Source of the DNA: Escherichia phage phiv205-1
Sequence record: MN340231.1
Strand: one strand, 5' to 3'
Length of the DNA: 44,616 nt
The position numbers were made by a program. Each line of letters starts with the position of its first letter. Position 1 is the stretch's first letter. Positions 42,001 through 44,616 of this stretch are shown here, piece after piece.

Positions 42001-44616
42001 ACACTCGTCATTACTGCGATACCGCAACAGCTACTCCGGCGAAAGCAAAGAAAATGGCTGCTCTGATAGAAAACTGGACTCCACCTGATGGTTGGTGCAA
42101 TGGGAATGATCGAGATTGGCACGAAAAAATGAAGGGCTATATCTGCGATTTTTTACGTAAATGCAACGGCTTCAGGGGGATGTGATATGACCAAAATTAA
42201 CTATCAGGCACTGCGTGAGGCGGCAGAACGTGCAATTCCGGCAATGGAACGCCTGTTAATGTTGCCAGTTGATGATGATTTGTTAAGTGAACAGGAACTT
42301 AAGGATTACGGTGTGGATATTGATGCGCTCAACGCCTTCAAATTTCTGACCGGACCAGAAACCGTGCTGGCGCTGCTGGATGAACGGGAAAGAAACCAGC
42401 AATACATCAAACGCCGCGACCAGGAGAACGAGGAAATTGCGCTAACGGTAGGGAAGCTGCGCGTTGAGCTGGAAGCTGCAGAGAAGCGCATTGCAGAACT
42501 GGAAGCCGAACCTGTAAGCCAAACTTACAAGTTGAACGAGCTGTCGGGCAACTATCCGGTAACTCCGGATGGTTGGATAAGCTGTAGTGAGCGAATGCCC
42601 GCTCAAGATGATTGGATTTTAATTTATTCAAAGCACGGCGAGTATATGGCAGGACAGGTACAAGGGGAATACGTGGAGTTGAGCGACGGCACTTTATCGT
42701 GGTTAGGGAACGCCTTGTACTGGATGCCTCTACCGGAACCGCCGCAGGAGGTTAATTGATGGTCTCCTTCGCGAAATATACGATTATTGACTGGATAGCA
42801 TTCATTCAGGTTTTGCTCATCTGGTTTTATATGGCTTACAGGAGTGGACAGTGGATTGTCAGTGTAGCCTGTAGCAATGGATGGCGTTGGTGGAACCGAA
42901 AGAATAAAAAAGCGCTGGCCTTGGCTTCGTTTTACGAAGCATTCAATCTTAACAGTCTTCAGCCTGGTTCTGTCGTTGTAGTCACCACTCAAAGCGGCAT
43001 GACGATACAAATTCACAAGCCAAAGGAGGAAGGTCGTGGCTAACCTGCAACTTGCCGTTAAAGGTGAATACTTCGATGCCATGATTCGCGGAGAGAAAAC
43101 GGAAGAGTATCGCCTGTGTAATGACTACTGGAATAAGCGAATTATGTTCCGCGAGTATGACCGCCTGATTATCACAAAGGGATATCCGAAGCGCGACGAT
43201 TCCAGCCGCAGAATTGACGTCCCGTATGACGGATATGAAATCAAGACAATCACACATCCGCACTTCGGCGATAAACCGGTAAAGGTGTTCGCTATAAAGG
43301 TGAATATCGACAATGAATGATAATCCTCGCACTCGCGGGGATTTCTTTTATCTGAACTCGCTACGGCGGGTTTTGTTTTATGGAGATGATAAATGCACTT
43401 CCGAGTCACAGGTGAATGGAATGGAGAGCCATTCAACAGAGTTATCGAAGCAGAGAACATCAACGACTGCTATGACCACTGGATGCTGTGGGCGCAGATA
43501 GCACATGCAGACGTAACTAATATTCGAATTGAAGAACTGAAAGAACACCAAGCCGCCTGATGGCGGTTTTTTATTGCCTGATTTGCAGGTTCGATTCCCT
43601 ATTCGGAGATAGCACTCATGCAACACGAACTACAACCTGATTCACTGGTTGATTTGAAATTCATCATGGCCGATACTGGCTTCGGTAAAACCTTCATCTA
43701 TGACCGGATTAAGTCCGGCGACCTGCCAAAAGCCAAAGTTATCCACGGGCGAGCAAGATGGTTATATCGTGACCATTGTGAATTCAAAAATAAGCTCTTA
43801 AGCCGCGCCAATGGGTAAAATAGCGGGTAAAATATTTCTCACATCTAAAAAACACCATTCCAATCAATCCCCTGCCGCCTAAAGTAGATGTCTGCAGGGG
43901 ACACCATTCTTGTGTTTATCCCTAAAACCACGTAAAAACCGTAAATTATTAAATTCGCACTAGCAATGCCGAATAAGGCACACCAGAAACTCGTGGTCTT
44001 ATTCATTATGAAGTGGTTTTTACCTGTTCTCTTAACCAAGTAATAAATGCCTCAATTTTTGGCCACTGCCTGCCCGGTAATGTAGTGATGTAATAATGCT
44101 GATGGCATTTCACCGTCATATCGCCAAACGGCGCGACGAGCTCACCACTGGCAAGCCTTTTTTGTACCAGACGTTTCCTTCCCATCGCCACCCCAATATG
44201 ATTCATCGCGGCGATAACGGCTAAATCAGAGCGATCAAAGCCAATTCCAGAAGATGTCGGCAAATTAACCGCATAATGTTGCGCCCAACTATGCCATTCA
44301 TCCGTACCGGAGTCGTTGCTCCATGCCTGTCTGTCATGGAGCAACGTACAGTGACGCAGGTTAATTACCGTGTTGGTTAAATCATGTCTATGAGCGTACT
44401 CCGGGCTGCAAACTGGCAGGATTTCTTCATCCATCAGAAAGTGATGAGCCAATTGCGCTGACGGCGCATCATCAAAGTAGATCGCCAAATCGATTCCGGC
44501 ACGTTGCAAATTGACATTGTCATTACCAGTGAGCACGGTGAGCGAAATAGACGGATATCGGCGTGTAAAGTCACCTAATGCGGGCACCAACCAGCATTGG
44601 GCGATAGAGGGCCGGG

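Follow-up and report, generated by a model that had tools for sequence, protein, structure and literature searches.

In the 44,616-nt stretch of Escherichia phage phiv205-1 DNA analysed here (MN340231.1; hereafter the window), a CUS-3-like P22-type prophage carries the known argW recombination module of KplE1, HK620 and Sf6. Just 5′ of the ribosome-binding site of its excisionase gene, torI, lies a second copy of a 16-nt piece of the tRNA gene argW, TTGCAGGTTCGATTCC, the form taken in the E. coli lineage by a box, (CA)GGTTCGATTCC. Our main reading, to which we assign a probability of about 0.6, is that the box is a conserved copy of the T-loop side of the tRNA belonging to the phage module; it would be neither a crossover site nor half of an attachment site that has been split, and its origin would not lie in this strain. 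As to its role, our best guess from sequence comparison is that it derives from the tRNA and regulates torI, perhaps as an attB-like half-site for the integrase IntS. The argW recombination module is already known, and the KplE1/HK620 system is the best-studied excision module outside lambda; a strongly conserved T-loop-like box right before its excisionase gene adds a modest biological point.

The prophage is integrated at the 3′ end of argW and has the IntS/TorI layout of KplE1/HK620-type modules, with five TorI sites in two blocks (Table 1). The torI product aligns over its entire length with PDB 1Z4H, 'Tor inhibition protein' (E = 6.6e-43), and the positions of the TorI sites are conserved in 10 unique P′ arms. 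The word GGGTAAAA, repeated in the P arm, is found again before intS (1200-1244); the repeats are presumably arm-type sites for IntS, which contains an arm-binding domain (Pfam Arm-DNA-bind_3). The box lies between the early-left terminator and the ribosome-binding site of torI, and the order of box and then GGAG is kept in all box-bearing leaders. Other contexts within E. coli have a different hairpin ahead of this T run and the bases after it.

Table 1. Features of the argW recombination module in the window
Feature	Position	Strand	Basis or remark
argW, tRNA-Arg(CCT), integration target	1009..1083	+	ARAGORN
tRNA copy of the 16-mer (variable-loop end, 5′ T-stem, T-loop, CC)	1054..1069	+	
GATTCC, putative attB 'B' half-site	1064-1069	+	inferred from core symmetry
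attL copy of the 17-bp core	1069..1085	+	pattern search; KplE1 core CTGCAGGGGACACCAT in PMC2951348
TGCAGGG, putative 7-bp crossover segment at attL	1070-1076	+	symmetry analysis
P′ arm, five TorI sites	1089..1179	+	site description and coordinates of PMC2951348 mapped on the window
TorI site I1	1089-1096	+	
TorI site I2	1109-1116	+	
TorI sites I3-I5	1152-1179	+	
PintS -35 TTGACA	1179-1184	+	overlapped by TorI sites
intS, heterobivalent tyrosine integrase	1245..2402	+	ORF; Pfam Phage_integrase, Phage_int_M, Arm-DNA-bind_3
Last early-left gene before the module, 55 aa	43393..43560	+	homologue precedes xis in lambda-type prophages
Intrinsic terminator, 8-bp stem and T run	43550..43577	+	directly 5′ of the box
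TTGC-N5-TTGC	43574..43586	+	CII site and pI promoter by HK620 annotation
16-mer	43583..43598	+	cross-genus conserved box CAGGTTCGATTCC = 43586-43598
GGAG ribosome-binding site of torI	43605..43608	+	6 nt past the box
torI, excisionase (recombination directionality factor)	43618..43818	+	ORF; PDB 1Z4H match
Two GGGTAAAA repeats in the P arm, presumed IntS arm-type sites	43813..43832	+	kept across genera
Putative crossover site at attR	43887..43905	+	imperfect palindrome
attR C half-site GATGTC	43887-43892	+	
attR overlap TGCAGGG	43893-43899	+	
attR right half-site GACACC	43900-43905	+	
attR copy of the 17-bp core, true right prophage end	43892..43908	+	
dsdC, chromosomal gene flanking attR	44006..44616	-	extends past the window end

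By direct reading and a pattern search of the whole window, TTGCAGGTTCGATTCC has two exact copies, 1054-1069 and 43583-43598, each on the + strand; allowing up to 2 mismatches adds no further site. Shuffled sequence gives an expectation of 0.02, with 2 matches in 0 of 100 shuffles, which bears out the initial annotation both in the exact repeat and in the view that it does not arise by chance. The 17-mer core, CTGCAGGGGACACCATT, also has exactly two copies (shuffle expectation 0.00), and the pattern search confirms that the one at the right junction, 43892-43908, equals tRNA positions 1069-1085. From the ARAGORN placement of the tRNA, the 16-mer comprises the end of the variable loop, the 5′ strand of the T-stem, the T-loop and the first 2 bases of the 3′ T-stem strand; the supposed kinship of the second copy with the tRNA likewise holds. 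The two repeats have base 1069 in common and jointly cover tRNA positions 1054-1085 (32 nt). At the right end they are separated by 293 bp (43599-43891) with torI inside, and the first four bases of the 16-mer, TTGC (43583-43586), double as the second half of the TTGC-N5-TTGC element.

Near 43583, ARAGORN found no tRNA, and searches of Rfam with 43300-44100 and 43450-43750 gave no tRNA match even at E = 10 and no known cis-element at E up to 10; the sole match was antisense STnc130, sub-threshold at 24 bits against a cut-off of 55. Identity with the tRNA ends after 16 nt, with no recognisable cloverleaf or larger tRNA fragment, and a tRNA gene or pseudogene was therefore rejected. We also dropped a reading of the leader past the box, GGAGATAGCA, as a decayed acceptor stem, GGGGACACCA, since, of the 7 bases in 10 that match by eye, most belong to the ribosome-binding site, which is under constraint.

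The real attachment core is the 17-mer, and the 16-mer is not a crossover site. The comparison with the empty argW–dsdC site that the initial annotation had proposed is plain on this point: the empty yfdC-argW-dsdC site has its junction at the 17-mer in 912 E. coli genomes and at the 16-mer in none, and a junction of tRNA, 16-mer and torI occurs in 0 of 5,426 E. coli genomes. Excision works in vitro with a 135-bp attR (PMC3509656) whose left primer maps to window position 43796, 200 bp downstream of the 16-mer; the box is absent from that attR, and we rejected it as a required part of the substrate. By symmetry analysis, the core is an inverted repeat in which GATGTC and GACACC flank the 7-bp TGCAGGG; this palindrome has 5 of 6 matches in the window and 6 of 6 in phage EhrS_49, and it covaries in Edwardsiella.

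The record of phage CUS-3 from E. coli RS218 (CP000711.1) is annotated in conflict with these results. It starts and stops on the 16-mer, and its 'attL core' and 'attR core' are exactly the 16-mer pair of the window, as if the 16-mer were the true core and torI a chromosomal gene. That reading is already refuted by the empty-site and junction counts, and its chance of being right is virtually nil: the circular HK620 and Sf6 records contain both torI and the 16-mer, beside the annotated attP core, and in Kapi1 the att site was assigned to the duplicated 17 bp (PMC8787464). Over its last 119 bases, CP000711.1 is 100% identical to window 43480-43598. Ending at the 16-mer, the record leaves out torI and the real attR, and the prophage end in the window lies 310 bp further on, at 43908; from 1054 to 43598 the window prophage measures 42,545 bp against 40,207 bp for CP000711.1, and so is ~2.3 kb longer. 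The CUS-3 reference record is thus delimited by the wrong repeat, without the excisionase gene and the true attR, and delimiting argW prophages by 16-bp repeats would repeat this error.

The copy at 43583 is phage DNA, on the phage side of the argW module. Its leader is identical in HK620 and Sf6, and Kapi1 and other phage records give 98% matches over the same leader stretch. The comparison with CUS-3 and KplE1 suggested at the outset finds the 16-mer in K-12 KplE1 as well, while the CUS-3 record ends on it. Across genera, the box is present in 56 of the 69 unique leaders, in ~16 leader contexts from Escherichia, Citrobacter, Serratia, Pantoea, Erwinia and Edwardsiella, and it occurs in tandem in Erwinia phage Midgardsormr38, L234 and L238. 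Thirteen leaders lack it, so that the module can dispense with it; among them is Dryocola, in which the ribosome-binding site comes straight after the same terminator and ATTGCCTG. Among E. coli leaders, at least 3 different upstream contexts have the box as their first common sequence. Between box-bearing lineages, the four-fold degenerate sites of torI are 37-77% identical, i.e. near saturation, and in the box itself C56 is the position that changes independently, three lineages having TTAG for TTCG.

Outside E. coli, the match of the box to E. coli argW is usually 13 nt, CAGGTTCGATTCC; the argW T-arm is the same in the few hosts examined, including one Erwinia/Pantoea-type host whose T-arm equals that of E. 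coli argW. With 13-nt matches in other genera and a TTGC shared with the lambda-type element, the exact abutment of the two tRNA pieces is specific to the E. coli lineage. A search for the same split in other argW prophages, as first proposed, therefore has a divided outcome, with the box conserved across genera but exact abutment confined to the E. coli lineage. TorI homologues of Proteus-type modules have no box, no argW core and a convergent integrase, and this different layout makes them uninformative. To look for equivalent boxes before excisionase genes in other tRNA-targeting modules, we searched viral contigs for the more common T-loop, GGTTCGAATCC, with GGAG and ATG after it; none of the 120 matches listed stood beside an excisionase gene, and each of those matches was a tRNA, genuine or unusual, or an unrelated ORF. 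The box sequence is that of the DNA immediately left of the attB crossover point, and we infer that it descends from the tRNA and has been kept because it controls torI.

Other origins have to be weighed against this. An ancestral attP with at least 32 contiguous tRNA bases, into which a 293-bp torI cassette was inserted between 1069 and 1070, would account for the exact abutment of the two pieces in the window, with base 1069 alone in common. We nevertheless find such an insertion hardly credible. The abutment is lineage-specific, the match elsewhere being usually shorter, and 2 nt (TG) are common to the overlapping box and core block of Serratia and Pantoea; the leading TTGC aligns with the lambda-type element. 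In most relatives, a T-loop-like sequence in register (TTCGAT, then GTA for TCC) also stands immediately left of the core, so that the DNA next to the core has its own degenerate T-loop and the insertion goes unsupported; the attP of most non-E. coli relatives already carries a contiguous, degenerate tRNA-like block, contrary to the tRNA-derived arm with an inserted cassette that the initial annotation had envisaged. Because the 135-bp attR works in vitro, the 293 bp hold arm sites that attR needs, which again counts against insertion. Lastly, all 120 sampled matches to contiguous T-arm plus core in viral contigs were host argW at attL (111 intact, 9 cut by the contig end), leaving no phage-internal example among the 120 sampled contigs. 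Nor does a relic of an earlier or tandem integration in this strain survive: the box sits at the same place in circular HK620 and Sf6 and in K-12 KplE1, and it is conserved across genera whose synonymous sites are nearly saturated. A tRNA leftover without function at an old mosaic joint, produced by illegitimate recombination at tRNA sequence when the torI-attP-intS module joined phage backbones and passively carried since, is unlikely, though it has more in its favour. The box is the leftmost sequence common to the genera, which puts it at the module boundary; 13 of 69 leaders do without it and show no obvious harm; the Dryocola difference is a clean indel of ~24 nt; the T-arm flanks that are kept differ by lineage (TTG in E. 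coli, CCTG in Serratia and Pantoea); and within E. coli the box is no better conserved than its neighbouring bases. Passive carriage is, however, hard to square with GTTCGATT, which is unchanged in the ~16 leader contexts while the ribosome-binding-site spacer and all upstream sequence vary and four-fold sites of the adjacent gene have diverged to the extent given above, or with the tandem duplicates kept in three lineages. Should the box be inert, it would be a fossil tRNA sequence at a mosaic joint.

Among regulatory alternatives, autoregulation by TorI through the GTTCG of the box appears very unlikely to us, even though the TorI sites of attL are defined by GTTCG, GATCG or GTCCG (PMC2951348), repression of intS by TorI via such sites is known, and the box variants of L255 and L280 read CAGTTCGA, nearer the TorI consensus. 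In 49 sites from 10 unique P′ arms, GTTCG is followed by C or T and never A, and the base two before it is never A; against the 8-mer consensus [C/T][A/G]G[T/A][T/C]CG[C/T], the box has the pentamer with both flanks wrong. Its E. coli form scores -2.7 bits on the TorI matrix, outside the 2.1-16 (median 12.9) of the 49 real sites, and the C of GTTCG is invariant in those sites, yet the most variable position of the box. Conservation of ATTCC reaches beyond the extent of any TorI site, and tandem boxes are 15-17 bp apart, against 10 or 20 bp for TorI sites. The TorI binding site suggested by the initial annotation is therefore not borne out by the matrix; of the conserved TorI operator before torI that it had named as contrary evidence, the conserved element is there and the resemblance to an operator is not. 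A translational attenuator in the torI leader has a small but real chance of being correct. On read-through transcripts in the lysogen, it would hide the ribosome-binding site by pairing box UUCC with GGAG and GGUU with AACC just before AUG. Such a two-tier hairpin, in which 9 pairs are mostly preserved, is the consensus that RNAalifold predicts for 8 lineages, and its inner helix is lengthened by different changes in the Citrobacter type (AUUUCC/GGAGAU; z-score -2.8) and the Pantoea type (AUUCC/GGAGU; z-score -1.8); rare box variants fall mainly at the C and G of the would-be internal loop, and the L271 variant, ACUCC, betters the pairing with the ribosome-binding site. The covariation term, however, is only -0.17 kcal/mol, with one pair changed on both sides, and 6 of the 8 leaders fold no better than shuffles (z -1.0 to +0.8). 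Pairing of the ribosome-binding site is similar when the upstream sequence is shuffled (fraction reaching the observed value 0.03-0.96, mostly > 0.15), and a plain hairpin does not explain why the internal-loop CG is nearly invariant between lineages. Support for the attenuator from predicted RNA structure is weak.

Returning to the box as a conserved, tRNA-derived module element, we tentatively suggest, as our preferred mechanism, that it may be an attB-like (B-type) core half-site for IntS that helps to silence torI, a proposal against which we would still bet. IntS would contact the box while bound to the nearby P-arm sites, looping or blocking ~220 bp with torI and so keeping the excisionase silent in the lysogen; weak pairing of box UUCC with the GGAG ribosome-binding site may be an addition. 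A role of the 16-mer as a site for a recombination protein, raised at the outset, may hold for IntS. At the core-proximal site, TTCGAT is retained in register with the tRNA (T55 100%, G57 98%, A58 95%, C56 49%), and this site and the box are alike in their TT-n-GAT pattern and variable C56. The GATTCC of the box is identical to the B side of attB, and it matches 3 of 6 positions of the putative half-site consensus GGTGTC (inverted-repeat form G[A/G][T/C]GT[C/A], abutting the 7-bp overlap TGCAGGG); with this match and no overlap segment adjoining the box, the affinity of IntS for it may be negligible. It is quite unlikely that the box is, more specifically, a retained pseudo-B site at which an IntS loop of ~220 bp couples excisionase silencing, or the choice between integration and excision, to integrase occupancy; if so, it would be a new control layer in the KplE1-type module. 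Excision is considered to be controlled mainly at the excisionase gene (Panis et al., PMC2951348), and a conserved element in the leader of such a gene is an obvious and cheap target for mutagenesis, a scrambled form of GTTCGATT being CAAGCTAA.

Within the module itself, we found no difference between the window and KplE1. The argW modules of KplE1 (CPS-53), HK620, Sf6 and CUS-3 have the same duplicated core, CTGCAGGGGACACCAT plus one T; in both, IntS adjoins attL and TorI adjoins attR in the same orientation, five TorI sites occupy the same P′ arm positions and overlap PintS, and GGGTAAAA repeats are present in both arms (PMC2951348, PMC3509656). Neither of these papers, in which the module consists of attL, attR, intS and torI, mentions a box upstream of torI, and a literature text search did not return the box sequence as an unbroken string. 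In lambda, the CII-activated promoter pI, at the start of xis, takes the same position, after the terminator of a small gene and before the excisionase gene. We take TTGCGTGTAATTGC to be the lambda pI CII site; lambda and the window can be aligned as TTTTTT-c/aTTGC-g/cTG...TTGC, and the HK620 record labels the equivalent of the window element as CII site and integration promoter. The spacing, however, is N5 here and N6 in the lambda-type modules before xis, the second TTGC is not kept in other genera (TTCC, TTAC, TGAC) and is absent in most, and a scan of the + strand from 43300 to 44050 found no promoter-like site and no sigma-70-like promoter near the box. A lambda-type CII-activated pI promoter was rejected on these sequence grounds, and the T-loop box has no lambda counterpart.

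Elements that integrate into tRNA genes form the wider comparison. Williams is said to have described, in 2002, tRNA-derived identity blocks in the attP of such elements. Blocks of this kind go back to Reiter et al. 1989, as cited in PMC8787464. The window resembles these elements in that tRNA 3′-end sequence carried by the phage restores the tRNA on integration and in that crossover takes place at the junction of T-stem and acceptor stem. It differs from them in having a second tRNA-like piece, ~300 bp from the crossover and upstream of the excisionase gene, that plays no part in restoring the tRNA.

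The initial annotation had described the last 32 nt of argW as reappearing at the right end of the window in two pieces around torI, and both the 16-nt and the 17-nt copy were confirmed by reading and by pattern search. The 16-mer, TTGCAGGTTCGATTCC, occurs at only two sites in the window, with no third site when up to two mismatches are allowed, and the 17-mer, CTGCAGGGGACACCATT, also occurs only twice. The pieces share base 1069 and jointly cover tRNA positions 1054-1085; at the right end, they are separated by 293 bp holding torI. As had been proposed, the 16-mer pair exceeds chance, with a shuffle expectation of 0.02 and two sites in 0 of 100 shuffles. 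The repeat is genuine and belongs to a known system, which accounts for it; the mechanisms favoured by the initial annotation are mostly wrong. The window also carries two adjacent phage-borne tRNA genes, and the T-loop of the tRNA-Asn is, with one mismatch, the sole other near match in the window to GGTTCGATTCC, the short T-loop-like box that lies within the 16-mer.

Features of the window discussed in the text (positions on the + strand)
Feature	Position	Strand	Remarks
argW, tRNA-Arg(CCT)	1009-1083		ARAGORN
16-mer in argW	1054-1069
Palindrome, left copy	1064-1082
17-mer, left copy	1069-1085
Integrase gene	1245-2402		Adjoins argW; Phage_integrase and Arm-DNA-bind_3 domains
neuO-like O-acetyltransferase ORF	2642-3418	-
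tRNA-Thr(TGT) and tRNA-Asn(GTT)	29153-29308	-
STnc130 sub-threshold match	43541-43668	-
TTGC-N5-TTGC	43574-43586
16-mer upstream of torI	43583-43598
torI	43618-43818		Right end, then dsdC; product a full-length match to PDB 1Z4H 'Tor inhibition protein'
Left primer of published 135-bp attR	43796
P-arm sites	43813-43832
Palindrome, right copy	43887-43905
17-mer, right copy	43892-43908

Comparison with the empty argW-dsdC site, which had been suggested as a check, placed the junction at the 17-mer. A synthetic empty site joined there was essentially intact in 912 complete E. coli genomes (100% coverage and 99.7% identity, annotated yfdC, tRNA-Arg and dsdC), whereas a synthetic 16-mer junction, running from the tRNA through the 16-mer to torI, was found in 0 of 5,426 genomes. 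These counts refute the 16-mer as the true att core, and very little is left of that reading. The HK620 and Sf6 records annotate the attP core at the 17-mer position, and in Kapi1 these 17 bp have likewise been reported as the att site (PMC8787464). Excision in vitro works with a 135-bp attR (PMC3509656); since this fragment, as mapped by its left primer, begins downstream of the 16-mer, the latter is not required for excision in vitro.

The 16-mer repeat is already public in GenBank, mistaken there for the att core. The CUS-3 record, CP000711.1, starts at the equivalent of window position 1054, ends at that of 43598, and calls both 16-mers att cores (attL and attR core), at 1-16 (1-16 of our compared locus L111) and 40192-40207 (1604-1619 of locus L003). 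Being bounded by the 16-mer, the record leaves out torI along with the P arm and the real attR, and the prophage in the window is ~2.3 kb longer between identical landmarks. As a by-product of this analysis, the CUS-3 reference record needs correction.

An identical leader, ...TTTTTTATTGCCTGATTTGCAGGTTCGATTCCCTATTCGGAGATAGCACTCATG, is found in HK620, Sf6 and K-12 KplE1; Kapi1 and about a dozen further phage records match the leader stretch at 97-98% identity, and the box is present in circular phage records. In E. coli-type loci, the upstream DNA falls into three or more unrelated contexts, all meeting at the box just past a terminator T run. Because the leader is common to HK620, Sf6 and KplE1 and the contexts converge, the 16-mer is no scar from an event in this strain, which excludes, for this strain, the proposal that it is left over from an earlier or tandem integration; an ancient integration event may nevertheless have given rise to the box.

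Across torI homologues from species genomes, viral contigs and metagenomes, which gave 69 unique leaders, GGTTCGATTCC was present with at most two changes in 56, representing about 16 different contexts (Citrobacter, Serratia, Pantoea, Erwinia, Edwardsiella and others). It invariably lies a few bases 5' of the ribosome-binding site, with variable spacer and upstream DNA. Tandem box copies occur in Erwinia phage Midgardsormr38 and in loci L234 and L238. The copies lie 15-17 bp apart upstream of the excisionase gene in Midgardsormr38 and related contigs (L004, 1985-2015; also L234, L236, L238, L338 and L339), and the second reads GGTTCGGTTCC in L236 and L339. Two short contigs with an enterobacterial-type torI module and box, L014 (JAEWEJ010000341.1, 'Actinomycetes bacterium' MAG) and L029 (JBKEAL010000209.1, 'Parachlamydiaceae' MAG), are probably mis-binned or contaminant; L014 also has an argW-type core, and the L029 leader equals that of Citrobacter locus L016 over the 122 nt compared. 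Conservation of the box across genera upstream of an excisionase gene is undescribed in the KplE1 literature covered (PMC2951348, PMC3509656), which is weak evidence, as the key site-mapping papers fall outside it; the box sequence as an unbroken string had no match in a full-text literature search.

The 16-mer is a composite whose opening TTGC is also the second half of a TTGC-N5-TTGC element, annotated in the HK620 record as a CII site and integration promoter. Other genera have TTCC, TTAC, TGAC and so on in place of this TTGC; the element is not conserved there, and the box usually matches E. coli argW over 13 nt, CAGGTTCGATTCC; one Erwinia/Pantoea-type host with two boxes has the T-arm TTGCAGGTTCGATTCCTGC as in E. 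coli. In Serratia and Pantoea, the box extends to CCTG, overlapping the core block by two bases. With TTGC lineage-bound and a 13-nt match elsewhere, the exact abutment of 16 and 17 nt is peculiar to the E. coli lineage.

Immediately left of TGCAGGG, 43 unique attR or attP sequences keep the T-loop in tRNA register, matching the tRNA at T55 (100%), G57 (98%), A58 (95%), T59 (84%) and C56 (49%), with TCC replaced by GT(A/C) after the T-loop. A contiguous, if degenerate, tRNA-like block next to the core thus already belongs to the phage, which makes the box further upstream a second copy. This block leaves very little of the suggestion that a torI cassette was inserted into a 32-nt tRNA arm, and no contiguous T-arm and core inside a phage was found among the matches listed (120 sampled contigs). 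Together with the acceptor-stem side, the core block forms an imperfect palindrome, G[A/G][T/C]GT[C/A], TGCAGGG, GAC[A/G]CC, which agrees at 5/6 positions in the window (GATGTC-TGCAGGG-GACACC) and at 6/6 in Erwinia phage EhrS_49; in Edwardsiella, a matching T-to-C change occurs on both sides (GGCGTA ... AACGCC). We infer that TGCAGGG is the 7-bp overlap segment at the T-stem/acceptor-stem junction, flanked by putative IntS core-type half-sites.

We favour reading the box as an element of the known module that selection has kept at the upstream (5') edge of the torI leader; it has no part in strand exchange and is dispensable for the module, it would descend from the tRNA, and any function is likewise conjectural. 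For a role as an IntS pseudo-B-site, acting by looping or as a roadblock with the P-arm sites, we estimate a probability of roughly 0.3. The proposal of an IntS/TorI binding site survives in its IntS part, as a possibility: the box is identical to the B side of the crossover in attB and shares with the core-proximal site a TT-n-GAT pattern with variable C56, but its GATTCC matches the half-site consensus at 3/6 positions and no overlap segment follows. The TorI part fared worse. In 49 TorI sites from 10 unique P' arms, GTTCG is followed by C or T, never A, and the base two positions before it is never A; the resulting matrix gives the E. coli box -2.7 bits, versus 2.1-16 for real sites. The C of GTTCG is invariant in real sites, yet is the most variable box position, with TTCG changed to TTAG independently in three lineages. 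The score and the variable C make a canonical TorI site unlikely, and a TorI operator is improbable.

That the box is an inert leftover at a mosaic joint is doubtful. Four-fold degenerate sites of torI show only 37-77% identity between box-bearing lineages, a divergence that makes neutrality an unlikely explanation for an unchanged GTTCGATT. The box is missing from 13 of the 69 leaders; in Dryocola, which shares the terminator and ATTGCCTG, the ribosome-binding site comes immediately after the latter. About as doubtful is a part in a translational attenuator, a live yet weak rival: a consensus hairpin predicted from eight lineages would pair GGUU...AUUCC with GGAGAU...AACC, hiding the ribosome-binding site, and two lineages carry helix-lengthening changes. 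However, covariation contributes only -0.17 kcal/mol, z-scores fall mostly between -1 and +0.8, and shuffling the upstream bases leaves the ribosome-binding site with about the same predicted frequency of pairing. No sigma-70-type promoter was found near the box on the + strand, and no Rfam family matched at the box. The Salmonella sRNA family STnc130 gave a full-length match below threshold (24.3 bits; cut-off 55), which is antisense to the torI start, box and terminator and could hint at an antisense transcript or be chance. A second by-product of this analysis is the box as a cheap, testable candidate regulatory element.

On the argW side, the integrase gene is accompanied by an O-acetyltransferase gene containing a run of RLKTQDS heptads and by a 917-aa ORF, the equivalent of which carries the annotation endosialidase tailspike in CUS-3; these are hallmarks of K1 phage CUS-3. 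The O-acetyltransferase ORF begins with six RLKTQDS repeats, which correspond to the AAGACTC heptanucleotide tract annotated in the CUS-3 record as the poly-psi domain, with 19 copies there; the copy number thus differs between the two. Proteus-type loci (L260-L264, L026) encode TorI homologues (~75% identity) in another layout, with a convergent gene directly after the TorI homologue gene and neither argW core nor T-loop box; the TorI excisionase family thus also serves at least one other module type. Lambda-type prophages with the same upstream 55-aa gene and terminator as the window (L008, L009, ~1585-1610) have a TTGC-N6-TTGC before xis that aligns with the TTGC-N5-TTGC after the terminator, the latter spacing being one base short. 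Together, the two ends carry the argW recombination module known from KplE1, HK620 and Sf6, with a duplicated core CTGCAGGGGACACCAT, IntS at attL, TorI at attR and five TorI sites in attL (PMC2951348, PMC3509656), and the module in the window matches those of KplE1, HK620, Sf6 and CUS-3 in everything.
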